From NCBI GenBank assembly GCA_050084515.1, contig CM114271.1, positions 30,318,001 through 30,382,000 of the forward strand: a stretch of 64,000 nt of DNA, given 5' to 3'. This DNA comes from Blasia pusilla. Taxonomy: Eukaryota. Shown here piece by piece: positions 10,321 to 64,000 of this stretch. The notes beneath the pieces were generated by a model. It was not told the DNA's origin, did no database searches, and saw nothing but the letters and a program-made list of their open reading frames with translations. The position numbers and the translations under genes were made by a program. Numbering within the stretch: the first letter of the stretch is position 1; every line of letters begins with the position of its first letter.

Positions 10321-10557
10321 CCCACTACTCCATCACGATGTCGGATTCCCTCAATGAGGCATGGAGAATCATCCAAATCCCAAACTCGATTGTAGTGTTC
10401 TTGGGGTACAACTCTTGTGGGATTTGAGCTCGTCTTAAGTTCCTCATTACATTTGATCATGCTATTCCAAGTCACAATCCTGATCATTTGAGATGCCCAT
10501 CTAAGTTTGCGTTTTGCTTTTGCAATTCATGCCTTGCTCGTGAGACTCCGATGCGTT

Positions 10558-11200
10558 TGTCACGTCCTTTAGGATAGATCGGTGAGATCTAGTAGAGCGT
10601 CTTCAAGAGTAGTGGAGGACAGGCCTAGGAGGTCGAGGATGACCTAGTGAGGCCCCAGGAAACTTGAGAGAGCAAGTTTCCCCTTCGTTTTGGCTCATTT
10701 GGAGCCATATTGAGGAACTTACTATTTTAGGTAAGTACCATTTTGAGTATATGATCGAATTTCTATTTTTGGTAAGTGGCCCCTGACCTCCTACATCAGG
10801 TTAAGAGCCAAGGAGGTGAATTGGGAGAATAGGTTACCATGGAGAGAGCTTGGGAGAGGGGAGGGGTGTATATCTTAAGGAGAGAGAGCTTGAGAACTCA
10901 TTCTCTCTTTGTTGAAGCTCTTGGCATGAGGCGGCGGAGTTATGGTCCCTTGCCTTATGAGTGTAATCCAAGCCTCTCATTAAGAGAGTGGGTTTGGTTT
11001 GACATGAGAGAGAGTGCACACCTTTGAGAGCTATGGTATGAGATTGTGTAGAGAGAGATTGGATCTTACTTTATTGGAGATATTTTGGTACTTCTTGTCT
11101 CGTTGTTTGGATGCCATGAGTTAGCATGGGATTGTGCGTGTTTGTGTGTATGTTCGGTGACAACGATGTATGTTGTATAGCGATGTGTATGCGCACGACA
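10558..11200 (+). mobile_element. Solo terminal repeat (B+A, 643 bp) of gypsy family 2
   Basis: TGTCA...CGACA ends; 4-bp TSD CGTT (10554-10557, 11201-11204); reverse complement is similar along its length to 56617-57259. Confidence 0.92.
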
Positions 11201-27141: not shown

Positions 27142-27600
27142 CATATGATCGACCGACGTGTGATTGAATCTAACCCACCATTCCCCTGAAATTCTGGATC
27201 GGGTCAAGGTGGGATCCAATTGAACAAGGCAGGGCTTGCAAGGAGTCACTGTCATCTTTCGAGAGGTGACGTCTGTCCTTTCTATGACCTTAAGAGCTCG
27301 AATTCTTCACGAGTTCCCCCGTACCTTCGCATGTGATCGACCGACTTGTGATTTAACCCACCCCTCCCCTGAAACTTGGATCGGGTCAGGCGGGATCCAA
27401 TTGGACAAGGCGGGGCTCGCACGGAGTCATTTCCACGTTTGGAAAGGCGATAGGATACTCGCCCCGCCCATTGTAAGACCAGCAGAGCTCAGATTCTTTA
27501 CGAGTTTCCCCAGACCTTCGCTTACGATCTACTGGCCTGTGCTTTCTTCCACCCGTTCCCTGGGAGTTGGATCAGGTCTGGCGGGATCCAGTTGGACGAA
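27142..27600. repeat. Diverged ~190-bp tandem repeat (about 2.5 copies) upstream of the GT49 gene
   Basis: gatcgaccgac..gtgatt..aacccacc..cccctgaaa..tggatcgggtca.g.gggatccaattg recurs at ~27146 and ~27334, and partially at ~27549. Confidence 0.7.
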
Positions 27601-30600: not shown

Positions 30601-30772
30601 AATTTTGGCCGCACACGCAACCTCTATGGAGAATTGCATCTCTACCTTGCTTCGTTGGAGCCCAAGTTGGGGACTAGGAGCTCATTCACAAGAGTCCGCC
30701 CAAACTAGGTCCCCAAATTGAGCCTATTCAAATAGGTTGGTTAGATCTAGCTTTCCACATCGATGTTGCAAC

Positions 30773-30911
30773 TGTCGTGCGCATACATATTGCTACACAA
30801 CATACATCGCTGGTTACATCTACACCACACAACACCGATCTTCCCCACACATGGGTCGATCCACACATGTACAAAAATCATCTCATACATATACATGGAG
30901 ATCACACAACC
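30773..30911. repeat. Element 1 repeat A (139 bp, terminal copy)
   Basis: Matches 31394-31532 with about 7 substitutions; absent from the other end of the element. Confidence 0.93.
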
Positions 30912-31391
30912 AAAAATAAAGAGTAGTAAAAATGGCACACCCGGCCGAAAACTCCATTCCTCAATCTACATTGGCATATCGAGCCTCGTCCACCTTATGC
31001 TATCAAGGAATCCAGACGCTAGCACCCTAGTCCTATCTCACACACATACAAGGGAGGTGCTCCAACGGCCCAACATGAGAAAGATGGCTTAGGAAAGCCA
31101 TCTTCCTCTCTTATATAGAGTTGGGAAGAGCCAAAAGGCTCTTCCCCTAAAAATAACCCTCTTCTTAGTAACCTGCGCACATAGGTTACGAGGGGCGAGT
31201 GACCTGGTCAACAAGTCACCCGGCTATGAAAGACCTCAACATGAAAGTTATTAGAAACGACGTTCCTGACACAATGGACCTATTCTCAACCTCATCCGAC
31301 CCCGTGGGACAAAGTTACACTCAAGATAGTCCACTGGCTCCTACGCCCTATCCACGATAGATCTCGGCCTATCGGCTACTCAGATGTGATA
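30912..31391. repeat. Element 1 repeat B (480 bp, 3' copy)
   Basis: Matches 39299-39778 with about 15 substitutions counted by eye, mostly transitions. Confidence 0.95.
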
Positions 31392-31393
31392 GC

Positions 31394-31532
31394 TGTCGTA
31401 CGCATACATATCGCTACACAACATACATCGGTGGTCATATCTACACCACACAACACCGATCTTCCCCACACATGGGTCGATCCACACACGTACAAAAATC
31501 AACTCATACATATACATGGAGATCACACAACC
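31394..31532. repeat. Element 1 repeat A' (139 bp, internal copy)
   Basis: Separated from B by the dinucleotide GC (31392-31393); abuts the G-rich tract on the internal side. Confidence 0.93.
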
Positions 31533-31542
31533 GCCCCCCTAG
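31533..31542 (-). promoter_or_regulatory. Putative polypurine tract, upstream of A' rather than of B
   Basis: Minus strand TAGGGGGGC; equivalent TAGGGGGCG at 41336-41344 and TAAGGGGGCA at 57389-57398 in family 2. Confidence 0.65.
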
Positions 31543-31607
31543 CTGGCAGTTGGATCCCCCCAACTCCAGAAAGAAAATATCACATCTCTCTGATATCACC
31601 TACTACC

Positions 31608-32870
31608 CTATACACATCTCGGACACATCCATCGTCCCGTGGGAACCACATCAACATGGGAGTCAGACATGACATATGCCACCCTCGAGAACAACCATCA
31701 CATACCAACATGGTGGCTGCATCCCTCGCAGATCCGCACATCAGACACCGCAAGCCTACAGGTACCACTGCCAAGCTCGGATCCACCGTCCCATCTATGT
31801 TCGGAAGAGGACATGACGCACAATTGCGCACATGATCCTTCCAAACCATACCATCCCGTCCCTCCAACATGAGGACTCCGGTCGGTAATACCTCGCGCAC
31901 ACGTAGGATTGTGCGCCCTGCAGTGACATCTAGCGTCGTGGGTGCCGCCTGCTCTAAATACACGTAATCTCCAGGTTGAAACCTCCTAATCCCTAGACGA
32001 TAACCTCCTCCACGAATATTCGTGTACCTCAATGTATCTCTATGCTCAGCAATAGCTAAGTTCTCAAAGGCCATAAGCATAACTCTACGAAAAACCTCCG
32101 CCCTCTGAGAACATGCTTGTACCCACACATCTGGATCATCAAGATCTAACACCTCTGCCATGTCACGTCGAATCGCTGCAGGTAAATCTGGCTCTCTCTC
32201 AAAGAGCAAAAAGTACTGTGAAAATGACGCCAAGGATGCCTACCGACTAAAGCAAAAACCCATAGCCAACCATGGCAACTGTAGGTCCCACTCCCTCAAC
32301 TGTCCCCGCTGCATGCCATACTTGCGCAATCCTCTCTTCACCGTCTGTACCACTCTCTCCGCCAACCCATCCGCCTCAGGATGATCTCTGGACGTGGTGC
32401 AGTGTTCTATCAGCGCCTGATCACACAAGGCCTAAAACTCTCCCCTGAACTCGGTACCGTGGTTAGTCAACACCTCCGCCAGTGCATCAAAGTGACTAAG
32501 CACATGATCTAGAAACGCATAAGCTGTTCCCTTGCTCGCCTTGCCTGGTAGTGCCACCAACTCTATCCACTTGGAGAAATGCTCCACCATGACCAACACG
32601 TACATATGATGACGCCGCGTCAATGGCAAAGGTCTCGCAAAGTCTAAACTCCACCGATAACCTAAATCCATAACTGGAAAAGGATGTAACTGCGGAGTGG
32701 GAGCATTGAAGGATGCTCGCACTCTGTCACATACCATACATCCGCCACAAATGCTGTACCCGGTATGCATGCGCGCCACCAATCTTGAACACGAGTAAGT
32801 CGTAAGTCCGCTTTACTCCGAAATGTCCCAACTCCTAATGGGCATGTCGTACTACACGTGCTCGCTAGGA
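31608..32870 (-). pseudogene. Element 1 integrase (HHCC + DDE core) with C-terminal PHD finger
   Basis: HAH-x-LGHFG...C-x2-C; RWSLDFARPLP...VEHFSKW...TNHGTEF; HPEADGLAERVVQTVK; CLMC...LVCDGCSRGWHMSCL...(frameshift)WMCPRC. Contains stops. Confidence 0.9.
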
Positions 32871-33309
32871 AGGATGAGGTACCACTCGTATCCTACCATC
32901 TCCCCATACCCGCAAAATATGAGTTCCCTCCCACCTGAACCTCTTGGCTCTCTGTAGGATCCGATCCCGCTCCCTAGCACTCACTGTACTTGCAATGACG
33001 CCAGTGCATAAGAACTCCACAACCTCCACGTCGTCATGGATATCACGTCCACCTGTCGCCTCCTCACTAACCTCCAGATCCAAAGACTCATCATCCAACC
33101 CCACCACTAGAGTCATCACCTGTGGCTGACCTGCTATAGTCAACCAACAAAGATAGGCAGATGCATGCCAACCGGGCACCATCTCCTCATCACTTTCTCC
33201 GTGCCATCGAGCTCTTGTGTCGTCTCTCTGACTCGAACATGGGTCACAACTCAACCAATCCGCATCCTGGTTCAGCCGACCTGGCCTATGAACCACCTCA
33301 AACTCATAC

Positions 33310-33965
33310 TCCTATAGTAATAGAGCCCACCTTGCAAGCTTTCCCGTAAGCTTGTCGGACTCCATCAACCACCTCAACGGCTGATGATCAGTGATAAGTG
33401 TGAAAGGGTTGCCGAATAAAAAGCACCTGAAATGTGCCACTGCCCACACTGCAGCCAAGCACTCTCCCTTGTAGGAGGTGTACTTCGCCTCTGCAATGTT
33501 GTTCGATCGGCTCGCGTAAGCCACAACGAACTCCCTCTCCTCGTCATCCCTCTGAGTAAGCACTGCTCCTAGACCCAACATGCTCCAATCCGTATGTAAC
33601 TGGAATGGGCGACCCCTAATCGGTCTCTGTTAAATGGGTGAGGATGTCAACATGTCCTTGAGCTCCTGAAATGCTCGCTCCTCATCATCTCCTCACAACC
33701 AAACCTGATCAAGTCTCGTCAACAAGGTCAAAGACTTTGCGATCGCACTAACACCCTTGACATACCATCGATAGAAGTTCGCCAGTCCAAGAAATGCTCG
33801 GACTCGACTCACATATGTAGGGCGTGGAATCTGCGCAATAGCCTCTACCTTCGTCTACTAAACGCCTAACCCACTCGGGTATATGGTGTGTCCCAAGTAC
33901 TCAATCTGCTCCTGAAAGAATCTGCACTTGCCTGGATGTAACTTCAGTCCATGTTACTGCAATCC
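33310..33965 (-). pseudogene. Element 1 RT C-terminal part and RNase H; RT core deleted
   Basis: HGLKLHPGKC..YLGH, FLGLANFY, FQLHTDWS...LGAVLTQ...VVAYASR...TDHQPL. About 740 bp present in element 2 (43795-44540, including YIDD) is missing at ~33965. Confidence 0.88.
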
Positions 33966-34108
33966 ATGTAACACTAGGGTTGCTATGTAGCAACCCTAGC
34001 CACCTCCGCAACAGGCACTCCACTTTGACCTCCTACACCATGCTCCACATCCGAAAAATGAACATGTGCTACTCTAGCCGCCTTCGCACTCTCTGCTCGA
34101 ATGACGTC

Positions 34109-35860
34109 CTAGGAAGTCCATGGGTGCCTATCTCTCCTCGTCTCGCCCTCAGCCAATGCCTGTACAGAACCTTTAGGCAATTGTCCAACTCGTGGACGTG
34201 ACGACATAGATGACACTCGCATCCGTCTCTGCTCAGCCATACCTAGGTTGACTATCCATGTGAGACAGTTGAGGTCCATCGCCTGCTCCAACACGTGTCT
34301 CTGGGATGCCTCAATCATCCCTGGCACCGCCGTAGTACCGGTAGCGAACCCCATGGCGCGCTCGCGCTCATCAGCTGTAGGCTCCTCCAATGCTCCGGTC
34401 ACCTCATCCCAAATCATGCCTGGCCCTCCCTGACGAAAGGCATGGGATGCTGGGAAGCTCACCAACGTAGGTAAGGCTGCCCTCAACTCCCCCATCCTAT
34501 TGGTCATGGCCAACGGTGGTCTATCATCCCGTGTCACCACTAGAGATCGACGCCCTGAGCCCAAAATAGCATCCACTGTGAGATGTGGTGCTCTCTGGAC
34601 TCCATCGTACGCTCGACTCGCACTGTGATGGTATCGGTTCGTCCACCACAGTCGTGGACGATGGGCACGTGATCCAACTCTCGCCGCATCTAATAACACA
34701 GCAGGTCCCAACCAGAACCTCACCTGATACACACTCGTCATCACACGTGCACGAGTGTCTCCCAACAATGGCACGTTCTCCAAGATGTACGTTGGAGAAC
34801 ATGTCTGACTCTCCTGCAAGTGTTGTACTACTCGCAGCATCTCCCAAAACATCCCTGACCTCGGATCCTGCAATCCAAATCCTTGGCCAGCTGATGAATG
34901 ACACTGACATGGCCATCCAGCAATCACCAAATGAATGGTGCCAACTCTATGCAGATCTTGCGCCCCCACCAAAGAGATGTCGGCGGGTAGTGTATGCTGA
35001 TATCCCCATACTGCACATACCGACAACAACTCAGGATACCTCTGTACCAATCTCGCCACGTGACGTAATGATACTCGCCGTGCGGTCTGATCTCTCTCAC
35101 CATAAAGGTATTGATGCACCCGTATGCCCGCCTGCAATACTGCAGCCAATCCGGTGCTAATCCTTCCGAAGATATCTAACACCCTAACACCCTCCTCTGG
35201 GCACTGCCACACAACAGGTGTGGTATCCAGTGGGGTCAACGTCTCCACGCCAAGAGCCTGATCGCCACGTGACTCACGCTGCTCCGGGATAAAAGCATGA
35301 CTCCACGCGTGCCTCACGAGGTTGTTGGCACTCCTCTGTAGCTCTGGAGTTATACCCCACAATGGTGAAGAGTTCTCGCCAACATGGGAAGAGACACCCG
35401 CCATGGCCTGACTCTCTGCGGGACTATCTGCTACTAAGACATCCTCCACATGTGCGTTATCCTCCAACAACTCTCCTGGCCAGCTAACACTACCTGTGAA
35501 AGCCGCCAACGTGGTCACAGACTCGCCTCGTGATCGACCACCTCGTCCCGCAAACTGCACGGGTAAGTGACTCATCTGGTCGTCACCTGACCGCCATCTT
35601 GGCCGATAAGCAACGGTCTCCTCCCATAAGTCAAGGATGAATCCTAGGGGATATAACAATGTACTCCCCACCAACATATCGTACGACTCAACTGGTGTCG
35701 TAATTGCACGTGTGCGCACCATAGCACTATCTGTCTCATACTCTGGCTGGACTCTAACAACTATCTCCTCTCGAGTCATATATTGCGTGGGTGACATGCC
35801 CCCAATCGAGGTCTGTATCTGAAAGGGACAAGGCTCAATGTCGGCCTTTCGTAACCCCAA
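34109..35860 (-). CDS. Pol segment: aspartic protease C-terminal half plus Dnmt3-like C5 cytosine DNA methyltransferase (~34250-35190)
   Basis: 583-aa open frame with C5-MTase motifs in linear order: I VLDIFGRISTG, II YLYGE, IV AGWPCQ, VI ILENV, VIII RAHRPRLWWTN, IX ERERAMGF, X VLEQAM. Confidence 0.9.
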   Translation of the reverse strand: MGLRKADIEPCPFQIQTSIGGMSPTQYMTREEIVVRVQPEYETDSAMVRTRAITTPVESYDMLVGSTLLYPLGFILDLWEETVAYRPRWRSGDDQMSHLPVQFAGRGGRSRGESVTTLAAFTGSVSWPGELLEDNAHVEDVLVADSPAESQAMAGVSSHVGENSSPLWGITPELQRSANNLVRHAWSHAFIPEQRESRGDQALGVETLTPLDTTPVVWQCPEEGVRVLDIFGRISTGLAAVLQAGIRVHQYLYGERDQTARRVSLRHVARLVQRYPELLSVCAVWGYQHTLPADISLVGAQDLHRVGTIHLVIAGWPCQCHSSAGQGFGLQDPRSGMFWEMLRVVQHLQESQTCSPTYILENVPLLGDTRARVMTSVYQVRFWLGPAVLLDAARVGSRAHRPRLWWTNRYHHSASRAYDGVQRAPHLTVDAILGSGRRSLVVTRDDRPPLAMTNRMGELRAALPTLVSFPASHAFRQGGPGMIWDEVTGALEEPTADERERAMGFATGTTAVPGMIEASQRHVLEQAMDLNCLTWIVNLGMAEQRRMRVSSMSSRPRVGQLPKGSVQALAEGETRRDRHPWTS

Positions 35861-35863
35861 CGC

Positions 35864-38100
35864 TTAACACGCCGCCTTCCCTAACATCAAGGGTTGCGCT
35901 CCCAAATCAAGTAGGACGCGCTGCAGATGGTATACTGTCCCCGTCGGACTAACCAAGCAAAATACTCCACCTCGGTTATCTAGTAACACTACTCCAAGTG
36001 TCACCACTGCTCGCTCTATGGCCGGTCGAGTTGGCATATCTACCAACTTCGCCGCCGCCGCATGCCATGACTCGGTGGGGAACGTCCCGAGCACCCGCTC
36101 TGAGGGCAATTCCACCACCTCCTCAACTACCTCTGAACAAGAAGCAGTCATCTCTCCACGCTCACACAACGTGGCGACCAACCGGAACAGCTCAGCTGGT
36201 CCAACTCCCAACGTCGCCAACTCTATGGCGGAAAATAGTGGAGTTTGACTCACTCTGGCGGCCACCTCCAACACTATGGTCGACAGTGACTCCACTCGAG
36301 CCGGCATAGGAGTTGTCACTCCAACTCCTCATGAGGTTAACGTAGGTACTTGAGCTGTAGGCACCAATGGTCATCGAGGCACCATCGATGGTGTGTGTAG
36401 TGCCTCCGACAATGTGAATGACTATGGAACCCTGGCCTGCCGCCCGTCGGTCCCCTTTGGTGGGTCAATCTCAACTCCACCTCTCAATGGCTCGGTGCCT
36501 CTCGCAGCATCCCGAGTCACCACTATAGCTGCCTCAACCCAGGCTGCACTACACATAAATCCCAAACTGGCAAGATCCTCACCCGGGTCAGGATAAGAGG
36601 TAGAATCCGGAGTCACACTAGCTGCTCGCAGCTCCGTGCCTTCCCTAAGCTGCATCATCATCATGGCAGCAATCCTTTGCTCCAACTGATTGATGTGTGA
36701 GAGAAGTGTCGGCTCTGGTGCTCCTGCTCCTCTGGCTGGTGGTGGTCCTCTACCATCACGTCCAGGAAGACTCCCCGACCTCCTCCGGGACAACCGCCCC
36801 CAGGCCCTCGGCCTACCTCTGGACGTGCCCCTCGGCGAAGGTCAAAACATTTATCCCTAGTGTGACCATATCTATGGGAATAGTCACACTGGTGCTATGG
36901 TGGGGCTATCCTCTGTGGCTCCTGAGCAATGGGAGGCACTAGTGGTCTTTCCCATGCTGTGGGTAGTCTCTTTGCCTATGGGCCCCTCCACACGTCCAAC
37001 AAGACCACATCGGTCCTTGTTGGGCAACATATGTAGGTACGGGTTGTTGTCTCATAGGCTCACGGTACCCGCCCTGCTCTCTAGGCACACTCGCCCACTC
37101 CCGTGGTACTGGTGCTCGTTGTGGCACCTGTGGGGTCACCATCGCTCGTGGACCCGTCGACTCTCGAGAAAATCCAGCGGTCACTACCGGCTCCTCACTC
37201 ATGTTGAGCTCAATACGCTCAGACAACTTAAAGACCACCTTCAATGTGGGCTTCGCTGTGTGAATCAGCACCGCATCTCGGACTCTCTTCCGTAGTTCTC
37301 GGTCCAGAACCCCCTACCAATACTGGACTGACTGCGCCTCAGTCACTCCAAACGTAGCAATGATCAGCCTCCTCATGCGTGTGAATGCCTCTCTCGGACT
37401 CTCACCCGATCGTCGCTCAAAATCATGTAGACTCTTTAGCTTGTCGGTGCGTACGCCCTGGTAGCTCTTCCCCAACTGTCGGAAGAACTCCACTGTGGGG
37501 CTGAAGCTGGGTGGTCCTCTACCATCAGAGGTCTCTGCCACATCGCCCATCTCATTGCCCTCCTCTCCATCTAATCTCCGGGCTAATGGTGTGGATCTCT
37601 CTCCTCTCACAATCCCATCATATGCCTCGCGACCACTAGTGGACACATACCCTGGAGCCCAATACATCCTCTAGGCATCGATCTCTACTGAATATAGTGA
37701 TCGAAACTCCATATAGTCATCCATCGGAGGACCCTCCAAGTGCTGGAACGATCCCTTCCATGCCATGAAATGGTTGAATCGTGTCGGGGTCCGTATCTCT
37801 TGGAAATCACACCACGTGTCGAACTCCTGGATAAAATCATCTAAGTCGATGGTGCCCACTGCACCCGAGAAACGACGCATGCCCCGATGGCCCATGTCGT
37901 CCATCTCCTGCCAAGTACTACTGTCTCTGTCTGCGATCTCGTCACCAGACCTAATGTCTACTAATGAAGATCCAGCCACGTATGGATGTCGAGGTAGCTC
38001 CTCACTGGTAACCCCTCGGTATCTCAATCCACTCCGTGTCACACCACTACTACTGCTCGCACTACCCGGTTCTTCCGAACCCTGGAAGAATGCCGTGATG
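35864..38100 (-). pseudogene. Element 1 gag and protease active-site region, broken by stops
   Basis: RFSGAVGTIDLDDFIQEF (gag N-terminal-like), FERRSGESPREAFTRMR (MHR-like), CWTCGGAH zinc-knuckle remnant, RVLLDLGAQP protease-like motif. Confidence 0.8.
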
Positions 38101-39284
38101 ACAAACCCTGTCTCACCCGCTCAAGCACTCAGACTCATCGAGAGTCTCCCACACGCCTCACTAGCTCACCTATGCTAATATCAATCCCGTGATGACATAC
38201 CTGGCCTCACGCACACTCAACACTCGGGCTCACTATGAGCCTCCCAACTGATTCACCTAACGTAGCGACACTCTCTCGGGTCATACACGCGACCCCTACT
38301 CGGCAACCGCCGTATATCCACCAACATGCTACACATGAAAAGAATCTACACTCGTCACCATCACTGCACCCACCTAGCACCAGCTACTACCCGATACCCA
38401 ACACTATCAATCACACACGACAAGTGCGGGAAAAGGGACTCGAATGGATAACCTGATCACGCCCTCCAACCTGCTGCACCATCAACATGCACTCCTCCAC
38501 GTGATATGACAACCTCCGCAACAAAACACTCTCCTCGACCAACACGTCGATCCTCCCATCAACAGATGCAGACAACCTGTCGGCATCATGCGCACTGCCC
38601 CTCCATCGTCAACTCTCGCAACGCCCTATCGCGCCCCAAAAACATCATGTCGCGCAAACCTCTCCGTCCATCCCCACACGCGGCATGTAACCTGACTCAC
38701 CCTGGTCGGCTCCCACCTACCACGTACGCCCTGTCCGACCACGTGAACATGAGCTCGACCACATTTGGACTCTCAACGACGTCTCCATCCAACCATGTTC
38801 GGTCCTACCACGTTTCCCATGCGCAACCACGTCCAAAGGGGAAGAAAAAGAGTAGTAAATGTGAGAGGGGGGGCCTGGCCCGCACCCCTATGGGCCTCCC
38901 CAACTTTTGGGGTGAGAAATAAATGCGCTTGGGGGCGCGCCATCGCCCCCCGTCTGCTCGTCGCCGTCCGCCCGTCCGCGCCCGCCGACCTAAACGCCCA
39001 TCAGCGCCTCCGACGGCTGCAAGCCCTAACTCTCCTTCTTGCTAAATCTCGACATTCCCGCTACTAGACGACGCTATACCTCCCGTCACAACCTGCGCTA
39101 CACCCTGCTCCTGTCCCCCATCAATCCGCACCAACAAAATCTGAGAAAAACGGACAGCGCTTCCGCCCACGGCCTTCCAAACAGAAAAATGACAAATACG
39201 ACACCAACCAACGTCTCCACGGGCTCCCGACCAAGGCAACTCGCTTGCCTACCTGCAAACAACGAATTCCCACCAACCCCCTGA

Positions 39285-39298
39285 CATCTTTCTCATGT
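39285..39298 (-). promoter_or_regulatory. Primer-binding-site position, complementary to the element's own predicted transcript 5' end
   Basis: Minus strand ACATGAGAAAGATG directly follows repeat B; its exact 14-nt complement is on the same strand at 39473-39460. No tRNA-type TGG start. Confidence 0.7.
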
Positions 39299-39778
39299 AA
39301 AAATAAAGAGTAGTAAAAACGGCACACCCGGCCTAAAACTCCACTCCTCAATCTACATTGGCATATCGAACCTCGTCCACCTTATGCTATCAAGGAATTC
39401 AGACGCTAGCACCCTAGTCCTATCTCACACACATACAAGGGAGGTGCTCCAACGGCCCAACATGAGAAAGATGGCTTAGGAAAGCCATCTTCCTCTCTTA
39501 TATAGGGTTAGGAAGAGCCAAAAGGCTCTTCCCCTAAAAATAACCCTCTCCTTAGTAACCTGCGCACACAGGTTACCAGGGGCAAGTGACCTGGTCAACA
39601 AGTCACCCGGCTATGAAAGACCTCAACATGAAAGTTATCAGAAACGACGTTCCTGACACAATGGACCTATTCTCAACCTCATCCGAACCCGTGGGACAAA
39701 GTTACACTCAAGATAGTCCACTGGCTCCTACACCCTATCCACGATAGATCTCGGCCTATCGGCTACTCAGATGTGACA
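39299..39778. repeat. Element 1 repeat B (480 bp, 5' terminal copy)
   Basis: Direct repeat of 30912-31391; ends TGTGACA followed by the TSD. Confidence 0.95.
39497..39504 (-). promoter_or_regulatory. Putative TATA box of element 1
   Basis: TATATAAG on the coding strand, about 31-32 nt upstream of a CA initiator-like site at 39473/39472; conserved in the 3' B copy. Confidence 0.6.
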
Positions 39779-40959
39779 CAACCCTCATAACAAACAAACG
39801 CCAAGCACAACATTAGAATTCTAATGGGCTCATTCTAGTATGGTTTACATGTTGAAGAGGTCTCTTGGAAGAGGCGCAAGAGACAAAAAATATGAGACAC
39901 GAATAAGGTTGAGCATTTCATTCTTCTATAGTCACGACTAGGAAACCTAAACGAAACATGAACCAAGACTTGAGAGAAGTGGAGTCTAGGAAGAGAAGTT
40001 GCCAAAGAGGTGAGAACCCGATTTGGAATGTGACTAGCATTTAGGGTTTCAGCTATATTTTGGACCATAACTTTTAGTCCCTAGACCCATTTGGGAAAAT
40101 TAAGGTGTCGTTGGAAAGCTTATGCAAATCCAATTCCAACGCATCAAAAATCTTAGAAAAAAAATAAGCAGAGGATGAGAAACTTCTTTACTTCCTTTCA
40201 GTTGGGACCGTTGGGCGTGCAAACGCCGTTTTAGGTGCCTGGACTATCAAGAAGACTATCCTAAGTCTCAGAAGTCCTGCCCATATTGGGAAGCTAGGAA
40301 CAAGGAAGATTGGGCTTGACATATGGCCGAGTTGAGAACTGAGAGAGTTGGAAGATTGATTGGCCCAAACCAAATCTAACGTGAGTGTAAGTAGCCTTGT
40401 GAGCAGCGAGAGCATGTCCTACTAAACATACGCTTACACAACACTAAAGATTTAAATTCAAGAGGAGTAGGCATACAAAAATCGAACTCATTCACATTCA
40501 GAGGAGTGCACATAAGTCATAAGAGTCACCGAGCAGGCTTTTATTGTTGCTCAGGAATCGTATCTAATTAAAGCGGGAGCCTTAGGGGATTAGGCGTTCT
40601 GATAGGTGCAACAGAGGGTTTAATTTACAGTTTACACTTCCAAATGGAAGCAAATGGAGGGGCAAGGCTTGGGTGATGGCCATTTTACAGATTTTTGGCG
40701 GCCCGGTAAATCCAAAGGGTTGCGCCTACCAGGGCGGTCGGCGTACCGCGGTTTAGGGTCTAATGGGCGGAGGGCATACCAGAGTGTTGCATCCCGATTT
40801 GATCGCAACGAAGTGGGGTGGGCATGGGGTTCACATGTCATAGTGCCCCCGGTGCCGCATCACCATTTGGTCGCACGACAAAGTTTGGTATTATGGTAGT
40901 GGGTGAATCTCAAATGTCGCAATTTGGCGCCTTTTCCAAATTGCCAATTGCTACTTCGG

Positions 40960-43900
40960 GGAGAGCTTCCGGAACACGAAATTGCTCCGAAATTGAGCTC
41001 TACATGTCGAGACTTTGTTGAGCGTTTGCTTAGTGTGAGTAATAGTCCCCACCATATTATGAGAATGCACACAAAGTGGATCACAGATCAGATGAGAGAT
41101 AAACTCAGTGGATCCTAAACTCAAGCAAGGGATGCTATGCTCAAACATCAAGACATCCTAAACATAAGAAATGCCACGAGGAGGCGATAAAGTGGGTATG
41201 AAGGGACTGTCATGCGCATACACATCCCTATACAACATACATCGTTGTCACCAAACACACACACAACCACGCATGATCCCATGCTAACTCATGGCATCCA
41301 AACGACAAGACAAGAAGTACCAAAATATCTCCAATCGCCCCCTAGATGGTGGTTAGGTCCCTCTAACTCTAGATAGCCATCTAACCCTACCTACCATGAC
41401 ATACATCTCTCGGACGATGAGAGCAAGAAGGCCGCGTGCTCATGTGGCCCCCTCGTTAGTCGCCTTCTTATCATCCATGTCACAAACACAAGTCAGAATG
41501 TAGAACTACCTACTTTATGTACATCCGGGACACATCCATCGTCCCTGAGGAACCCTAGTGAGAGGTGGCCTCAAGCCTGCCATATGCCATCCTCTCGAAC
41601 ATCCATCACAAACTAGCATAGTGGCTGCACCATGGGCAGAACCACACAACATACATCGCAAGCCTGCCCGAACTACTGTATCTTCAATGTTCGGAAGGTG
41701 ACACGGCGCACAGTTACGCACATGGTCCTTCCAAACCATATCATCGCGTCCCTCCAATAAGAGAATACTTGATGGAAAAACCTCACACACTCTCAAGATG
41801 GTGCGCCCTATAGTCACATCCAACATCGTGGATGCCGTCTGTTGTAAGTAGACATAGTCTCCCTAATGAAACCTCCGGATAGTAGGTCGATAACCACCTC
41901 CCCGAATAGTTGCATACCTCAACGTATCTCGATGTTGCGCAATCGCCAAGTTCTCAAACGCCATGGACATCACTCTCCGAAACAACTCAGCCCTCTGAGA
42001 ACATGCTTGCATCCATACATTAGGGTTATCAAGGTTCAACATCTCACCAACATCTCGACGAATGGCGTAAATCTGGCTCCCGGCCATAAAGAAACAAGAA
42101 CGGTGAGAAAGGCGCTAAGGATGCATGCTTGCTGAATCTGTATCCCATCGCCAACCACGATAACTAGAGGTCCCAATCTCCTAGGTGACCTCTCTGCAAG
42201 GCATACTTGCGTAATCCTCTCTTCACCGTCTGTACAACCCGCTCTCCTAGTCCATCCGCCTCAGGATGATCTCGCGTAGTAGTGCGGTGGTCATTAGTGC
42301 CTGATCACACAAGGCCTTAAACTCCCTGCAGAATGTTGTACCCTGGTCTGTCAACACCTTAGATGGTGCGCCGTAATGACTCAGCACTCGATCTAGGAAG
42401 GCATACGTTACTCCCTCACTTGCGTTTTCAGGCAATGCAACCAACTCTATCCACTTCGAGAAGTGCTCGATCATCACCAACACATAACGACTATGGCACT
42501 TTGTCAAAGGCAAAGGTCCTGAAAAATCCAAACTCCATCTATAACCTAAACCCATGATCGGAAGTGGATGCAACAGTGGAGTCGAAGCATTGAATGATGC
42601 TTGAACTCGATCATATACCATGCATCTAGCAACAAACTGTTGAACATCAATCTGCATGCCTCGCCACCAATACTGAATCTGGAGCAAGTTGTACATCCGC
42701 TTCATTCCAAAATGACCCAACTCCTCGTGGGCATGACGCACCAAACGTGCTCTCTGCAAAGGATGAGGCACTACATGCACTCTACCATCCTCCCACACTT
42801 GCAACATTTGTGTCCCTTCCCACCAGAACTGTCTGGCTCGTTGTAGGATCCGATCTCACTCTCTAGCATCCTCTATGCTCGTGATGCTGCCAATACGCAG
42901 GTACTCCAAGACCACTCCATCCTCGTAAATGTCTGGGCCATCTGTTGTCTCCTCACTGGCCTCTGGATCTAAGGACTCTCCATCAGACCTCGCCATCAAA
43001 GTCTTAAAAATCTGGCTCTCCATAGCCAACAAGCCCAAATAGGTTGAGGCATGCCATCCTGGCATCAACTCCTCATCACTCTCACCATGCCTACAAGCTC
43101 CAGTCGCATCTTGCTGACTCGAGCATGGGTTTTGGGACTCCTGCAACAAAAGAGCCCACCTTGCAAGCTTCCTTGTAAGCTTGTCGGACTCCATCAACCA
43201 CTTAAGTGGATGATGATCAGTAATGATGCTCAAGGGATTGCCCAAAAGATAACATCTGAAATGTGCGACAGCTCACACTACAGCCAATCACTCACCCTCA
43301 TACAAGCTATAGTTTGCCTCTGCAGCATTGTTCGAGCGACTAGCGTAAGCCACCACGAACTCTATACCATCATCGTCATGTTGGGTGAGCACGGCTCCAA
43401 GCCCCAACATGCTCCAATCGATATGCAACTGGAAAGGACGCCCCCTGATCGGTCTCCTCAATATGGGCGCGGACATCAGTCTGTCCTTGAGCATCTAAAA
43501 TGCTCTCTCTTGCTCATCCCGCTAGTGCCATTCCTGATCCACCTTGGTCAGCAAGGTTAGCGGCTTCGCAATCGAACTGAAACCCTTTACGTATCGTCCA
43601 TAGAAGTTTGCCAATCCCATGAATGCACGAACTCGACTCACATCTGTAGGGCGTGGAATGCGTGAAATAGCCTCTACCTTCGTCTGTTGCACACCAAGGC
43701 CCCCTAGGTATATCGTATGACCCAAGAACTCAATCTGGTCGTAGAAGAACTTGCACTTGCCTGGATGTAGCTTCAGCCCATGTAACTGCAATCGTCAAAA
43801 CATCTCCTCTAGATGTCGCTCATGCTCCTCAACCATGGCGCTAAAGACTACGATGTCATCAATATAACACCTAGCAAAATCCACACCTGCCAAGATCCTA

Positions 43901-46900
43901 TCCATGACCCTCTGAAACTTAGCCGGGGAGTTCTTTAACCCGAATGGTAAGAACTGCCATTGGTACAAAGAATCCTTCCCGTGAGGATCGATGCCCCAAA
44001 ATGCCGTCTTCTACCTGTCCTCCAATCTTATAGGCAGCTGATGGTATCCGGCTCGTAAATCCAATGAATTGAAGACCTTTGCATGCCCAATCGCATCAAA
44101 GATTTCCTCCAGGGTGGGCATGGCATACCTATTGGACTTCGTCTGCCGATAGATAGGTCCGTAATCTCCACACATCCGCCTATGCGTCCACTTGCCATGC
44201 ACATCCTTCTTGGCGGGCATGAGAGAGGTAGATGCATACTCTCCATGCGACATCTCCACTAGTCCTGCACCAACCAAGTCTTGGCTCCTACTCTGAATCT
44301 GAGCCCTCTCCATGTCACTGTACTTGTAGGATCGTCGAAAGATCGGTGTGTCACTCGACAACTCAATGCGGATCCCTGGACCCTTTAGCGTATCCAAATC
44401 ATGCATACTAAATGCAAAACAACTCCTATAACTCTTAAGGAACTACTGTATCTAACGCCGCTCTCCTCTTGTCAACTTAGGGCCCATATCTGCCTCCCAA
44501 GTCTCCATCGTGAGTACGGTAGGACTCTTCGGCGCGGATGTCGGTGGTTGTTATGGTGCAACCCCGTCTCAGACAATAGAACTCTCATCTCCACGTGCAG
44601 TACCCAGAACCACGCTCGATGTTGTGGCTATCATCTCCTGGCGTACCTGCAAAACATCCCAAGAAGTCCAAGGGTGTCTCTCCCGATCACCCCTGGTGTG
44701 TCGATCTCCTCGGGTCTCGCCCCCAGCCACTGCCTCAACCGTCTTGGTAGGCATGGGGCTCACCAACGCAACAGCTGTGATCTATTGCATCCTCAAACGA
44801 AGCTGCTCAGCTACTCCTAAACTGGAAATCCATGTCAAGCACTTCAGATCTATCGCCCTGATCCAAGACATGACGTCATGATGCCTCTAATAGTGACGGT
44901 ATTGTCGTCACTCCTATGGGTAATCCCATTGCTCGCTCTCGCTCATCGGCGTTGGGCTCCACCAACCTCTGTACTTGGTCATCCCAAACCAAGCCAGGTC
45001 CGGCCTCCTTGAATGCTTAGGAAGCGGGAAAACTCACCAATGTCGATCATATACTCAAAATGGTACTTACCTAAAATAGTAAGTTCCTCAATATGGCTCC
45101 AAATAAGCCAAAACAAAGGGGATACCTGCTCTCTCAGGTTTCTCGGGGCCTCAGTAGGTCATCCTCAACCTCTTGAGTCTGTCCTCCACTACTACTCCCG
45201 AAGGCGCTCTACTCGATCTCACCAATCTATCCTAAAAGATGTAACAGGACAGATGATGCAACCGCGGTCCACATGTGAGTTGAGAGGCATCCTGAACATG
45301 TCATACTTTACAAACCATTTGACCATGTCAATTGAGATCCCTTCACCCTTGATTTTCCACCCCATGGATGCTCCAAAATCTGGTAAGATTTGGAGACGGA
45401 GGTGCCATTAGTATGGATGCGCACATGGAACCAACACACACATACGAGATAACTCAATTGTTTTTGAATGGTTATGTATAGGGATGGTTGTAGGAAGGGT
45501 TAATTTCAATCAGCAAAGGTCAAGTATACCATGTTTTAGAATTTTACTTCGGAAAGTTCTCTACTGAACAGATTCAGAACCCTTCTAATGGAGAGTTCTA
45601 GAACTGAACTTCATTTCATGACACTAACTCTGCATCCTCAGTAACCTAAGACATTGTGGACAATGTGATGTAAGGTCTAGTTTTTTATATTAATTCGGTC
45701 CTCTGTTCTCAAGATATTGCATGTGGAAACACTGATCCTCTATGCATTGTTGGTTTGTTTCACTCCAAATAGTACCAACTGTTCACCCTCCTAGGTTTTG
45801 ATTCCTTCCATAATGGATTACCTATGGTGTAGGCAATTCTACAACGGCATACGCATGCAAACCTTGTGGAAGTTCTCAGGAGCATCAAGGCTCGTGCGGA
45901 AGCCATGATTTGCATTAGTGGACAAGATATCCTGACACGGTGGAACCCTTCTTGCTTCATTGTCGACGATTCAAAGGAAGAGCAATCAGCCATAAGGGAA
46001 GTGTTTCCACAGGTTCCTACCCACTTGTGTATTTGGAACATGCGAAAAGCCTCGCTCAGGAAGCTCCATCAACGAGTTAGATGTCCCATTACCAAGGCAG
46101 ATATGAATCGAGACCTCGGTCAAATTATGTACACTCGATATCTTGGTATGTGTATTTCTCTGGAAATCTGAAGTTTATCCTCCTTGACATGTATTTGCAA
46201 CCTACAAATGAATGTGTGGAGCTAAGTAGACGTGTAACCTGTGCAGATCCTTAGCAAGTATCCATGGACTTCCTCCACAAGTATGTTGATTCTGAGCCGC
46301 ATTTTGTGAAATACTAAACTACAAACTGGCACCCAAAATTGGCCTCATGGGCGAAGGCGTTTAGAAGTAAAGCCACATCTCACCAAGATACCAATGCTGC
46401 AATCGAAAGGTGGCATGCCACCTTGAAGACACATCTCACTTCAAGCATGCCGACCAAGGGAACAAGGAAGATTATTTGGCTAGTTGAAATTTTGACCAAT
46501 GAAGTTGAGGATTTTTGCTGGTACATGGCACTCTTGAAGTCTGAAGGGAGGGTTAGGAACAAGGCAATCTATCGTGTGATGACTATGGCCATAAAGAATG
46601 CTAAAGAAATTCCTGATGCCCATGTTACGTTTGAAAATCACAATGGCGTAAAATATGTGAAGGTCTTGAGTAAATCCAAACGAAGATTTTGACACTCAAT
46701 CTCCAACTACAACTCAAAGATTGCTGCATACACATGCTGCATGCCCAAGAGGGCACCACATGCAAACACCAAGTAAGTGTCCATCTAATTTGGTGCTTAA
46801 ATTGTAACGCACAATTCCATCAACCTCGAATCTTGTGTAGGCGTTCATGCTTTTTTGAAATCAGTTTGGGGTATGGTGACAGGTGAAGTGATTCTTGCTA

Positions 46901-56616: not shown

Positions 56617-59600
56617 TGTCGTGCGCATACACATCGCCACACAACATACATCGCTGTCACCGAACATACACACAAACATGCACGATCCCATGCTGACTCA
56701 TGGCATCCAAACAACGAGACAAGAAGTATCAAAATATCTCCAATAAAATAAGATCCAATCTCTCTCACAACATCATAGTTCTCACATGTGTGCACTCTCA
56801 CATATCTCTCTCAATGTCAAACCAAACCCACTCTCCTAATGAGAGGCTTGGGTTACACTCACAAGCCAAGGGACCATAGCTCCACCGCCTCGTGCCAAGA
56901 GGTTCAACAAAGAGAGAATAAGCTCTCAAGCTCTCTCTCCTTGAGGTATGTCCCTCCCCTCTCCCAAGCTCTCTCCATGGTAACCTATGCTGCCATGTCA
57001 CCTCCTTGGCTCTTGACCTGATGTAGGACGTCAAGGGCCACTAACAAAAAATAGAAAGTCAATCATATACTCAAAATGGTACTTACCTAAAATAGCAAGT
57101 TTCTTAATATGGCTCCAGATGAGCCAAAACAAAGGGGAAATTTGCTCTCTCAAGTTTCCCAGGGCCTCAATAGGTCATCCTCAATCTCATGGGTCTGTCC
57201 TCCACTACTCGCGAAGGCGCTCTACTAGATCTCACCGATCTATCCTAAAAGACCTGACAATTGTCGTGCGCATACACATCGCTAAACAACATACATCGTT
57301 GTCACTGAACACACACACAAACACACATGATCCCATGGTAATTCATGGCATCCAAACAATGCACAAGAAGTACCAAAATATCTCCAATTGCCCCCTTAGC
57401 TTGGGGTTAGGTCCTCTAACTCCAGATAGCCATCTATCCCTACCTACCATGACATACATCTCTTGTACGCTAAGAGCAAGAAGGTCGCGTGCTCATGTGG
57501 CCCAATCGTTAGTCGCCTTCTTGTCATCCATGTCACAGACATAAGTAAGAATATAGAACTACCTACTCTATGTACATCAAGGATACATCCATTGTCCATG
57601 AGGAACCCTAGTGAGAGGTGGCGTCAAGCATGCCATATGCCATCCTCTCGAACATCCATCACAAACTAGCATAGTGGCTGCACCACGGGCAGAACCACAC
57701 AACATACATCACAAGCCTGCACGAACTACTGCTAAGCTCGGATCAACTGTATCGTCAATGTTTGGAAGGTGACACGGCGCACAGTTACGCACATGATCCT
57801 TCCAAACCATATCATTGCGCCCCTCCAATAAGAGAACACCTCATGGCAAAACCTCATGCACTCTCAAGATGGTGCGCCTTGTAGTCACATCCAACGTCGT
57901 GAGCTTCGTCTGCTGCAAGTAGACATAATCTCCGTGTTAAAACCTCCGGATAGGATGAAACCACCTCCCCGAATAGTCGCATACCTCAACGTATCCCGAT
58001 GTTGCGCAATCGCCAAGTTCTCAAACGCCATGGGCATCACTCTCCGAAACAACTCAACCGTGTGAGAACATGCTTGCATCCATACATCAGGATCATCAAG
58101 GTTCAACACCTCACCAACATCTTGACGAATAGTTTTAGGTAAATCTCGCTCTCGTCCAAACAAAAGCAAGTACGGTGAGAAAGATGCTAAGGATGTCTGC
58201 CTGCTGAATTTGTATCCCATCGCCAACCACGGCAACTAGAGATCCCAATCTCCTAGGTGACCTCTCTGCAAGCCATACTTGCGTAGTCCTCTCTTCATCA
58301 TCTACACAACCCGCTCCCCTATTCTATCCACCTCAAGATGATCTCGCGAAGTAGTGCGGTGGTCGATCAATGCCTGATGACACAAGGCCTAAAACTCCCC
58401 GCGGAACGCTGTACCCTGGTCTGTCAACACCTCAACTGGTATGCCGTAATGACTCAACACTCAATCTAGGAAGGCATATGCTAATCCCTCACTCGCTTTG
58501 TTAGGCAATGCAATGAACTCTATCCACTTTGAGAAGTGCTCAATCATCACCAACAGATAACGACTATGACGCTCTGTCAAAGGCAAAGGTCCTGCAAAAT
58601 CCAAACTCCATCTATAACCTAAACTCATGATCAAAAGTGGATGCAACTGTGGAGTCGGAGCATTGAACGATGCTCGGACTCAATCATACACCATACATCT
58701 AGCAACAAAGTGATAAACATAAGTCTGCATGCCTCGCCACCAATACTGAATCTGGAGCAAGTTATACGTCCCCTTCACTCCAAAATGACCCAACTCCTCG
58801 TGGGCATGATGCACCAAACGTGCTCTCTGCAAAGAATGAGGAACTACACGCACTCTACCATCCTCCCACACTCGCAACACATGTGCTCCCTCCCACCCGA
58901 ACCATCTGGCTCACTCTAGGATCCGATCCCGCTCTCTAGCACCCATTGTGCTCGTGACGCTGCCAGTATGTAGGTACTCCAAGACCACTCCATCGTCATG
59001 AATGTCTCGGCCACCTGTTATCTCCTCACCGGCCTCTGCATCTAAGGACTCTCTATCAGACCTCGCCATCGAAGTCTCAAAAATTTGGTTGTCCATAGCT
59101 AACAAGCCCAAATAGGCTCGCCAAATAGGTTGACACATGCCATCCTAGCACCAACTCCTCATCACTCTCACCATGCCAACGAGCTCCAGTCGCATCTCGC
59201 CAACTCGGGCATGGATTACGGCTCAAACCATCTGCATCTTGGTTGAGCGTCCCAAGTCTATGCACCACTTGGAAGACTTACTCCTGCAACAAAAGAGCCC
59301 ACCTTGCAAGCTTCCATGTAAGCTTGTCCGACTCCATCAACCACTTAAGTGGTTGATGATCAGTAATGATGGTAAAGGGATTGCCGAATTGATAACATCT
59401 GAAATGTGCGACAGCCCACACTACAGCCAAGCACTCACCCTCATACGAGCTATACTTCGCCTCTGCAGCGTTGTGCAAGTGAGTAGCGTAAGCCACCACG
59501 AACTCTCTACCATCATTGTCATGTTGGGTGAGCGTGGATCCAAGCCCCAACATGCTCCAATCGGTATGCAATTGGAAAGAATGCCTCTTAATCGGTTTCC

Positions 59601-62600: not shown

Positions 62601-63659
62601 CCAACATCATGGGTTGTGCTCTTTAATCCAACAAGAGGCAGTGCGGACTAAAAGCTCTACCTCATGGACTCATCAACTGGAAGACCTCTCCCCGGTTATC
62701 TAGCAAAAAAACACCAGGAGAAGCCATGGCACGCTCTATCGCGGGTCTAGCGGGCATTTCCGTCATCCTAGTAGTCGCAGCCTGCCATGAATCTTACGTG
62801 GATAGTCCAAGCATCAGCTCTAAGGGCAGGTCCATCACCTCCTCTGCAATCACCTATGAACGTGATGCAAGAACTCCAACTCCACGCTCATATAGCCTAG
62901 CGGCCAGCCTCGGTGGACGTACCTCCCAACGTCATAACATCGGAAGCAGAAAATAAAGGAGCTCGGTACACAATGGTGGTCGCCCCCAACAACGTGCTCG
63001 ACACATGCCCCTCCTGAGCATCAGCAATAGGAGTCGTCGCACTCGCTTCTCTCATCGCCCTCCATGCCTGCACACCAACAACATCACCAACTCTCGAGGA
63101 ACTCTGATAAGGACCCATCAATGGGGTTCTCATCGCCTAGGACAACGTGAAAGACTAAGGAAGCCTAGTCTGTTACTTGGCTTTCCCTCGCTATGGATCC
63201 AACTCTGCGGCTGCTCCATGCATCACAACTGCATTGGCCTCCATTTGGGCAACTACGCACATCTAACCAAGATCCTCTATATCTCTGGATGCTCCATATG
63301 ATGTCGATGCCACGGATCTGGCATCGGGTAACCTCAATTCCATAGCGGCAATCTGCTCCTCTAGATGCTGTATCCGAGTAGCCATCCCAGCCTCATGCCG
63401 AGCGTCTCCCTCAACACGTCTAGGTGGTGGGACTCTACCTCCTCCATGGGCAGATCCACCACCCTGTCGGGCAACTCCAGCTCCTTGTCCCCCAACGGGA
63501 CCACCTGTTGGACTATCTCTAGGCACACGTGGATCGGCTACTCGCTCTGGTGCCCTCTCTGGCCCTCGGTCCGGACGTAACTCAGGGTGTAAACTAAAAC
63601 ACGTGGCACATGTGTGACCATATCTCTGAAAATAGTCACACTGATAACCTCTTGGTGCA
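56617..63659 (-). mobile_element. Element 3: family-2 DNMT/PHD gypsy retrotransposon; 5' end lies beyond a nested insertion and the window edge
   Basis: A 56617-56744, B 56745-57259, spacer AT, A' 57262-57388, G-tract; then decayed PHD (~57567-57712), integrase, RNase H, RT (C*IDDI), MTase (~60990-61915: VLDLFGGISTG, G*PCQ, ENM, RAHCLRLWWTN, GQAMDL), protease and gag. Confidence 0.92.
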
Positions 63660-64000
63660 TGTTGTGCGTATATATATCGCTACACAACATACATCGTTGG
63701 TCACATCTATACCACACAACATCGATCTTCTCCCCACACGGGTAGATCCAGACATGTATAAAAATTAACTCATACATATACATGGAGATCACACAACAAA
63801 AATAAAGAGTAGTAAAAACGGCACACTCGGCCTAAAACTCCACTCCTCAATCTACATCGGCATATCGAGCCTCGTCCACCCTACGTTATCAAGGAATCCG
63901 GACGCTAGCACCCTAGTCCTATCTCACACACATACAAGAGAGGTCCTCCAACGGCCCAACATAAGAAAGATGCCTTAGGAAAGCCATCTTCCTCTCTTAT
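63660..64000 (-). mobile_element. Element 4: A+B terminus of a family-1 copy nested in the gag of element 3 (continues past the window)
   Basis: TGTTGTGCG start; A ~63660-63797 and B from ~63798 match 30773-31114. Confidence 0.9.

Follow-up and report, generated by a model that had tools for sequence, protein, structure and literature searches.

An integrase-bearing retrotransposon of the bryophyte Blasia pusilla carries a permuted set of terminal repeats in place of two equal long terminal repeats (LTRs). It lies within a 64,000-nucleotide stretch of DNA (the window; GenBank assembly GCA_050084515.1, contig CM114271.1, positions 30,318,001 to 30,382,000, forward strand), and window positions below count from the first letter of that stretch. 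Two repeat units, A and B, make up its ends, and the integrated form of this element and its relatives is always TG-B...PPT-A-NN-B-A-CA, where PPT is the polypurine tract and NN a dinucleotide, with a 4-bp target-site duplication (TSD). We give a probability of roughly 55% to the reading that the two ends of the cDNA are joined, B to A, and that the DDE integrase then cuts an internal CA-NN-TG site.

Repeat layout of the window element

All long frames in 29000-41500 are on the minus strand, and the element runs from 39778 to 30773 on that strand in the order TG-B1...PPT-A'-GC-B2-A2-CA. Self-BLAST of 29000-41500 returned a B pair (30912-31389 and 39299-39776, 97.1% identity over 478) and an A pair (30772-30911 and 31393-31532, 95.0% identity over 140), and in this comparison no A adjoined the 5' B. 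Read on the minus strand, the element starts with TGTCAC at 39778 and ends with CGACA at 30773, with GTTG on both flanks (CAAC on the plus strand). An initial annotation of this DNA had proposed just such an anatomy, B...A'-GC-B-A between TG..CA ends and a CAAC duplication, and the minus-strand reading and self-BLAST bear it out. The features are as follows, in the 5' to 3' order of the element.

39779..39782, minus strand: 5' copy of the 4-bp TSD, GTTG on the minus strand (sequence)
39299..39778, minus strand: B1, the sole 5' repeat, 480 bp, starting TGTCAC (self-BLAST)
39504-39497, minus strand: TATATAAG, a TATA box in B1 at B position 275 (sequence)
39460..39473, minus strand: 14 nt in B1 (B positions 306-319) exactly complementary to the primer-binding site (covariation in a second family, family 3)
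39285..39298, minus strand: predicted self-priming primer-binding site (PBS), directly after the last base of B1 (complementarity, minimum-free-energy fold)
31533..31542, minus strand: polypurine tract CTAGGGGGGC, abutting A' on its upstream side (motif count and sequence)
31394..31532, minus strand: A', 139 bp, ending CGACA (self-BLAST)
31392..31393, minus strand: GC spacer separating A', which ends in CA, from B2, which starts T(G>A) (sequence)
30912..31391, minus strand: B2, 480 bp, starting TA instead of TG (self-BLAST)
30773..30911, minus strand: A2, the terminal repeat, ending CGACA (self-BLAST and reads)
30769..30772, minus strand: 3' copy of the TSD, GTTG (sequence)

The internal joint thus reads A'..CGACA-GC-TATCAC..B2, and the GC spacer plus TG would read as the palindrome GACAGCTGTC.

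The layout in further copies and families

BLAST within the window located four further copies, one belonging to the same family as the element above (family 1, copy 1) and three to a second family.

56617..63659, minus strand: family 2 copy 2a, interrupted at 63660 by the next element (BLAST within the window and sequence)
56617-56744 A, 56745-57259 B, 57260-57261 AT, 57262-57388 A', 57390-57399 PPT, minus strand: repeats of copy 2a (sequence)
63660..64000, minus strand: 3' end of a second family 1 copy, A at 63660-63797 and then B, lying inside the gag of 2a and running off the end of the window (BLAST and sequence)
41208..45246, minus strand: family 2 copy 2b, with the first ~205 bp of B, an internally deleted body with H2C2 and rve, a PPT and a single terminal A (BLAST, Pfam)
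10558..11200, plus strand: family 2 solo B-A, copy 2c (BLAST and sequence)

The A and B of family 2 are unrelated to those of family 1, except for the last ~40 nt of A. Beyond its PPT, copy 2a holds decayed integrase, RNase H, reverse transcriptase, DNA methyltransferase and protease sequences and the end of gag, so that its order is interior-PPT-A'-AT-B-A; the second family with the same 3' layout reported in the initial annotation was therefore real. Copy 2b is flanked by the TSD GTCC (45250-45247 and 41207-41204), and the solo B-A by CGTT (10554-10557 and 11201-11204).

The census was extended to 80 metagenome loci retrieved with a DNA methyltransferase (DNMT) alignment, using self-BLAST and BLAST with the repeats of one locus, L062. 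Among these loci is a third family, with complete B..A'-NN-B-A elements in L062 (TSD AAGG), L069 (CATA) and L072 (AATC); 3' ends of the form A'-NN-B-A are also found in L024, L037 and window copy 2a, while in L053 and L055 the sequence breaks off where the contig ends. A distant relative, L038 (39% DNMT identity), reads PPT-A'-GT-TGTCAC. The layout is thus common to four families, two in the window and the third and fourth in metagenome contigs. A perfect 4-bp TSD is present in all six elements that have both ends (window copy 1, 2b, 2c, L062, L069 and L072), which excludes chance.

If the missing 5' A were a private deletion, then most TSD-flanked full copies should show equal A+B repeats at both ends, an outcome that the initial annotation had named as fatal to its proposal. 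No such copies were seen. By BLAST, A lay upstream of B in none of the 18 five-prime B copies in the metagenome loci, two of which (L061 and L062) are one insertion. In sixteen of the 18, B opens with TGTCATGACCAT next to an unrelated flank; of the other two, one is truncated and one diverged. The internal joints read ACA-NN-T(G/A)TCA in 8/8 cases. As a bare motif the pattern GACANNTRTCA is not significant (three matches in the window against 1.65 expected), so its meaning comes from its position. A shorter form, B-body-A, with ends of the type PPT-A|flank, occurs in L014, L019, L029 and window copy 2b.

Two of the contigs also hold an aberrant copy, with the same sequence in both (L032 5538-5819 and L052 13832-14113). 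It consists of the 3' part of B, a B|A joint in which 9 nt of the PBS stand together with 5 other nt, and A, with an inverted B fragment ~500 bp upstream, and it resembles the outcome of faulty reverse transcription or joining.

Coding content and lineage

The body of the window element contains the following coding regions.

36939..38120, minus strand: gag-like region with a CCHC-like motif and 2 stops (by eye)
34109..35863, minus strand: longest open frame, 584 aa, with a protease-like N-terminal part and then a DNMT3-like C-5 cytosine DNA methyltransferase (Pfam PF00145)
32865..34076, minus strand: end of the reverse transcriptase (RT) and RNase H (RH), RT palm missing (Pfam RT_RNaseH)
31580..32878, minus strand: integrase (IN; rve core) followed by a C-terminal PHD finger, interrupted by stops (Pfam)

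Pfam detected DNA_methylase, RT_RNaseH, rve and PHD domains in this copy, and found no match for the gag-like region. The methyltransferase domain matched PF00145 with an E of 3.4e-9, and 17 of its 17 PDB matches were DNMT3A or DNMT3B. The copy is dead: it has many stops, and its RT palm is deleted, with a breakpoint near 33964-33978 where copy 2a is ~750 bp longer. A fuller picture came from the nearly intact L038, in which the first frame carries Asp_protease_2 and DNA_methylase and the next RVT_1, RT_RNaseH, Integrase_H2C2, rve and PHD (Pfam). The best solved match of the L038 pol frame was the Ty3 Gag-Pol polyprotein (7q5b, E 4e-98), and that of its integrase part was prototype foamy virus (PFV) integrase (E 2e-21). 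The H2C2+rve integrase is likewise kept in the polyproteins P0059, P0061 and P0062.

By its domain content, then, the window element is a Ty3/gypsy element with the gene order gag-PR-DNMT3-RT-RH-IN(HHCC+DDE)-PHD (PR, protease), the DNMT3-like domain standing between protease and RT and the PHD finger after the integrase. It shares with Ty3/gypsy elements the PR-RT-RH-IN order with Ty3-like RT and RNase H (the full set in L038; RT_RNaseH and rve, with PHD, in the window copy), as well as the HHCC and DDE integrase modules (H2C2+rve), TG..CA ends and a short TSD. It does not share their two equal terminal repeats, since its 5' end is B alone and its 3' end is A'-NN-B-A. Named protein relatives came from Marchantia polymorpha, Calypogeia fissa and Sphagnum only, which points to a bryophyte host, most likely a liverwort.

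We also looked for a tyrosine recombinase (PF00589). There was no Pfam match in 10 coding-frame segments of the window element, none in 10 further leader or antisense open reading frames (ORFs) at E up to 1, and none in the two long ORFs of the near-intact L038. The initial annotation had described a gypsy element with an HHCC/DDE integrase and no tyrosine recombinase, and had held that such a recombinase in intact copies would count against it; this part of its account stood, while it had missed the DNMT domain, the PHD finger, the self-priming PBS and the dead state of the copy.

Reverse-transcription signals and the predicted cDNA

We placed the probable LTR boundaries by the signals of reverse transcription. 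A PPT of the form CTA(R)GGGGG abuts A' on its upstream side in families 1, 2 and 3 and in L038, and there is no purine run before B2. The motif CTARGGGGGC has three matches in the window against 0.07 expected, and two of the three lie directly before an A'. The third exact match, CTAAGGGGGC, is in the RT/RNase H region of copy 2a (59842-59851, minus strand) and could be a central polypurine tract.

At the other boundary, the putative PBS directly follows B1. Its 14-nt complement in B1 starts 31 nt after the start of TATATAAG, and the minimum-free-energy fold pairs the predicted RNA 5' end with the PBS. Family 3 has a different 14-mer pair at the same two places: its PBS abuts the B end, and the complement is found 28 nt past the TATA box, at B position 166. 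Of 18 family 3 copies, 3 pair exactly, 9 have 1-3 mismatches and 6 have more. This covariation between families supports self-priming of the Tf1 type, and the B1 14-mer at 39460..39473 probably represents the RNA 5' end serving as its own primer. Another candidate, priming or bridging by the conserved A end with the leader, R-U5 or U3 (R, U5 and U3 being the repeated, unique 5' and unique 3' parts of an LTR), was rejected, as it yielded only isolated 9-mers and uninformative long duplexes.

Because the PPT abuts A' and the PBS abuts the end of B1, the repeat that is reverse transcribed should be A-NN-B. The expected linear cDNA would be [A-NN-B]-PBS-body-PPT-[A-NN-B], with outer ends that in family 1 read GGTTG.. 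and ..TTTTT, not TG and CA.

DNA and RNA reads

Reads were aligned to window positions 30500-39298 with a likeness threshold of 90. In run X19 (Hi-C DNA reads under the same species label), 174,970 reads aligned, with a depth of ~1200-2800 over the interior (both read directions summed) and ~3650-4550 over B. Past the A end at 30773, 4596 reads entered diverse sequence (agreement 0.34), as did 2223 reads past the B start at 31389 (agreement 0.37). The B end was joined to the PBS (39298 to 30912) in 890 reads, plus variants. Loose ends at 30812 and 31430 come from other families, whose likeness to this one is limited to the final ~40 nt of A. At the RT-palm breakpoint 1555 reads left the window sequence at 33964 and 1447 at 33978, which shows that most genomic copies retain the RT segment deleted from the window copy. 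At place 30910, in the B|A joint, 1145 of 1976 reads lacked one G and 15 lacked two. Differences between reads and the window copy were mostly C>T and G>A (696 and 590 places), as expected for deaminated methylated cytosines in old copies.

Two stranded RNA runs contributed 677 and 668 aligned reads, mostly sense over the element at a depth of up to ~21. Their alignments run across three joints: U5|PBS, B|A and, in related families, A'|NN|B. RNA reads of opposite orientation were confined to B and A2 (30794-31381, depth ~3-9) and suggest antisense or bidirectional transcription from the repeat.

A proposed route through joined cDNA ends

In textbook LTR elements, the PBS and the PPT fix the ends of the linear cDNA that is inserted. 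In the window element the ends set by PBS and PPT differ from the integrated ends, so the integrase would have to act on an internal site after the cDNA ends have been joined. In the route that we favour, the RNA would start ~30 nt after the TATA box in B1, its first ~14 nt would fold back on the PBS abutting the B1 end, and the plus strand would begin at the PPT abutting A'. The sole integrase-type ends (..ACA and TGTC..) would then sit head to head within each LTR, 2 bp apart. The end of B at one cDNA terminus would be joined to the start of A at the other, the arrangement of a 2-LTR circle, and the DDE integrase would cut after CA on both strands of the CA-NN-TG in the LTR just downstream of the B|A joint. 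Such a cut would leave 3'-processed ends (recessed CA-3'OH) with 2-nt 5' overhangs, to be inserted with a 4-bp stagger; ends of this kind are the normal substrate of strand transfer. The provirus would be a circular permutation of the cDNA, the uncut A'-NN-B would template both LTRs of the next cycle, and A2 and the U3 part of B1 would not be inherited.

If the termini are joined in this way, then the B|A joint should be formed anew in each cycle, and three observations argue that it probably is. The joint varies between one G and two, both among X19 reads and between the two family 1 copies in the window (one G in the copy at 63660..64000, GG in copy 1); the joint in L032 and L052 contains a PBS remnant plus 5 nt; and no fixed position-specific differences were found for A' against A (5 vs 5) or B1 against B2 (10 vs 5). 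The repeat copies of family 3 form a star with ~88-96% identity, so a nearest-relative test of A'/A and B1/B2 has no power. Cutting a 1-LTR circle, or cutting both sites, would give the dead-end forms B-body-A and B-A, and both predicted by-products are present (B-body-A in L014, L019, L029 and window 2b; solo B-A in window 2c). Ordinary recombination between repeats would also yield them.

Several observations weigh against this route. Neither a circle nor a free cDNA end nor a cut site was seen in these data, and short reads cannot reveal the intermediate, since every joint type also occurs in integrated copies. The X19 loose ends are those among the six listed, from which an absence of reads running from flank into the A start cannot be claimed. 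A random cut of a symmetric 2-LTR circle predicts that B-A-NN-B-PBS-body-A should be as frequent as the observed form. The observed form was found at eight 3' ends (window copy 1, 2a, L024, L037, L062, L069, L072 and L038), and the alternative at none of 18 five-prime ends in the loci, nor at either of the two window 5' ends with internal sequence (copy 1 and 2b). The NN is self-complementary in only 5/8 internal joints (GC three times, AT twice, AC, GT and TC). B2 starts TA rather than TG in 3/8 of these joints (window 31390, L069 15300 and L072 11902), while the 5' ends start TG in 16/18 loci copies and 3/3 window copies. Placements of transcript ends from the RNA reads rested on 5-7 molecules per place, and no molecule marked the predicted start. 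Since the B|A joint is covered by RNA reads (depths of 11 and 15), the transcript may extend past B2 and end in A2.

Some of these points have candidate explanations. The occurrence of one permutation may reflect a directed choice of site, a linear route in which cutting comes first, or rapid collapse of the other form to B-body-A. The TA start of B2 could be due to hypermutable methylated CHG, or to loss of cleavable internal sites. As for the RNA 3' end, we speculate that the downstream part of a 3'-end signal comes from A, given that only the 3' B has an A next to it.

Alternative explanations

One alternative keeps the internal site and reverses the order of events. The linear cDNA would first be cut through both strands by the integrase at the CA-NN-TG of its 5' LTR, 141 bp in from the left end. 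The two processed ends, one on the small A piece and the other the B start of the remaining molecule, would go into the target, and host end-joining would then seal the cDNA termini within the chromosome to give B|A with no free circle. This accounts for the same anatomy, the same PPT and PBS placement and the variable B|A joint. It also has a natural asymmetry, in that the site used is the one near a DNA end, which fits the absence of the other permutation from all 18 five-prime ends. On the other hand, the intasome would have to hold a 141-bp fragment while a chromosome break is left for host repair, we found no precedent in the literature searched, and a solo B-A as primary product is not accounted for. 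We regard this alternative as unlikely, though worth keeping in view.

In a second alternative, which we consider improbable, the reverse transcriptase itself makes B|A. An end-to-end template switch or rolling synthesis would generate a three-LTR cDNA, and the integrase would process its two outer CA-NN-TG sites. Here too the asymmetry follows, the outer sites near the DNA ends resemble those of normal 3' processing, and the 1-nt overlap at family 3 joints (TTTTCA + AGTTG read as TTTTCAGTTG) is explained. The B end and the A start are, however, without homology to guide a switch, and the PBS remnant plus 5 nt in L032 and L052 is more like imprecise end-joining.

A third possibility, a route as in DIRS and Ngaro elements, would have the circular cDNA inserted by a tyrosine recombinase acting in trans, with the element's own integrase irrelevant. 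The repeat order does equal A1..B1-A2-B2, an order described for SymbioDIRS-Dnmt3 in a passage of PMC5890265, and 'split direct repeats' is a term of papers on tyrosine-recombinase elements. Against this route, H2C2+rve is conserved in L038, P0059, P0061 and P0062, TG..CA ends with a 4-bp TSD in 6/6 elements are the mark of DDE integration, and neither the element segments and ORFs in the window nor the long ORFs of L038 contain a tyrosine-recombinase domain. Tyrosine-recombinase retroelements are not known to make a TSD. We consider this route close to refuted.

An ordinary two-LTR gypsy element (A+B or B+A) with a private loss or gain of A, or with A2 as a preferred target, is refuted by the recurrence of the layout in four families and the lack of A at all 18 five-prime B copies, by a TSD that lies outside A2 in 6/6 elements and a solo B-A with its own TSD, and by thousands of reads with diverse flanks exactly at the B start and the A end.

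Comparison with known systems

The closest described element is KnitGypsy-Dnmt3 of Klebsormidium nitens, a gypsy element with a Dnmt3 domain in its pol ORF (de Mendoza et al. 2018, PMC5890265). According to the Fig. 4c legend of that paper, the repeats of this element have the structure of a DIRS element, alongside gypsy domains. Both features recur here, the DNMT3-like C5 methyltransferase within the pol polyprotein (PF00145 in the window element and L038) and, compared with that legend, the DIRS-like repeat order with gypsy domains. By architecture, the DNMT domain ties the window element to the KnitGypsy-Dnmt3 lineage as a putative relative; the host there is an alga and here a liverwort-like bryophyte. 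PMC5890265 uses none of the words 'circular', 'hybrid' and 'chimeric' in its main text, whose passages give no TSD, TG/CA ends, PPT, PBS, joint sequence or mechanism. A passage of a 2026 preprint (10.64898/2026.05.21.726589) mentions 'streptophytes (Gypsy-DNMT3)' in passing. The main-text literature searched contained nothing on bryophyte members or on how such elements integrate, and Gypsy-DNMT3 was named only in PMC5890265 and the 2026 preprint. The suggestion in the initial annotation that this is not a described standard type therefore needs correcting, since the type is already in print in the Fig. 4c legend, while as far as those main-text passages go its mechanism is undescribed. Its idea of a non-standard route of replication and integration was reasonable and is strengthened by the PPT and PBS positions.

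Ngaro, PAT and DIRS elements, including SymbioDIRS-Dnmt3, share with the window element split direct repeats in the same order (A1..B1-A2-B2 corresponding to B..A'-B-A), and this shared order implies that the provirus is a permutation of a molecule whose ends were joined. They differ in the enzyme: theirs is a tyrosine recombinase with no DDE integrase, whereas the window element has rve and H2C2 with no PF00589 match, an HHCC/DDE integrase, TG..CA ends, a 4-bp TSD and Ty3-like RT and RNase H.

Self-priming has been predicted for the Tcn1 and Tf1/Sushi clades in a passage of Neumann et al. 2019 (PMC6317226). As predicted here too, the PBS in Tf1/Sushi and plant Tcn1 elements complements the 5' end of the element's own RNA and not a tRNA. 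Those elements have two equal LTRs and a chromodomain, whereas the bryophyte lineage, set apart by these features, has permuted repeats, a PHD finger and a DNMT.

HIV-1 (human immunodeficiency virus type 1) integrase reportedly cleaves the palindromic LTR-LTR junction of 2-LTR circles. For PFV integrase, a passage of PMC1180852 describes the same cleavage, giving 3'-processed linear DNA. By analogy, a retroviral-type integrase would here cut head-to-head CA..TG ends inside a circle. In the viruses the site is the joint between the LTRs and cutting restores the linear order; in the bryophyte element the presumed site lies 113-140 bp inside the LTR and cutting would permute the genome.

Other features of the window

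A 72.8% match over ~410 bp between 4484-4893 and 43619-44025 suggests that another ancient remnant of this element group lies near the start of the window. Host-like genes stand beside the transposon cluster.

14106-16106, plus strand: biotin/lipoate ligase family domain
18709-19719, minus strand: polysaccharide lyase 14
20508-22219, minus strand: glycosyltransferase 49

A ~190-bp unit with ~75% identity is repeated in tandem at 27141-27597 and is unrelated to the element.

Implications

Elements of this kind were already known but barely characterised; what is new are the bryophyte members and a map of cis elements that leads to a testable mechanism. A wider and tentative reading, to which we give slightly less than even odds, is that throughout the lineage, from charophytes to bryophytes, integration from joined cDNA ends via the internal CA-NN-TG is obligatory and every provirus is permuted. 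If true, the abandoned model in which the circle junction is the substrate of integration would have a working counterpart in nature, and a possible benefit would be a 3'-end signal that is split between B and A and works only at the 3' end. If confirmed, these elements would offer a natural system for asking how integrases use circle junctions, how split direct repeats originate without a tyrosine recombinase, and whether the DIRS-like repeat order evolved convergently.

There are also practical consequences. LTR finders that expect two equal repeats will mis-annotate these elements, which are abundant in the bryophyte (internal read depth in the thousands), and insertion ages estimated from LTR divergence have to be based on the pair B1/B2 or the pair A'/A. 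Finally, the DNMT3 and PHD finger carried by the element bear on how such elements deal with host chromatin.

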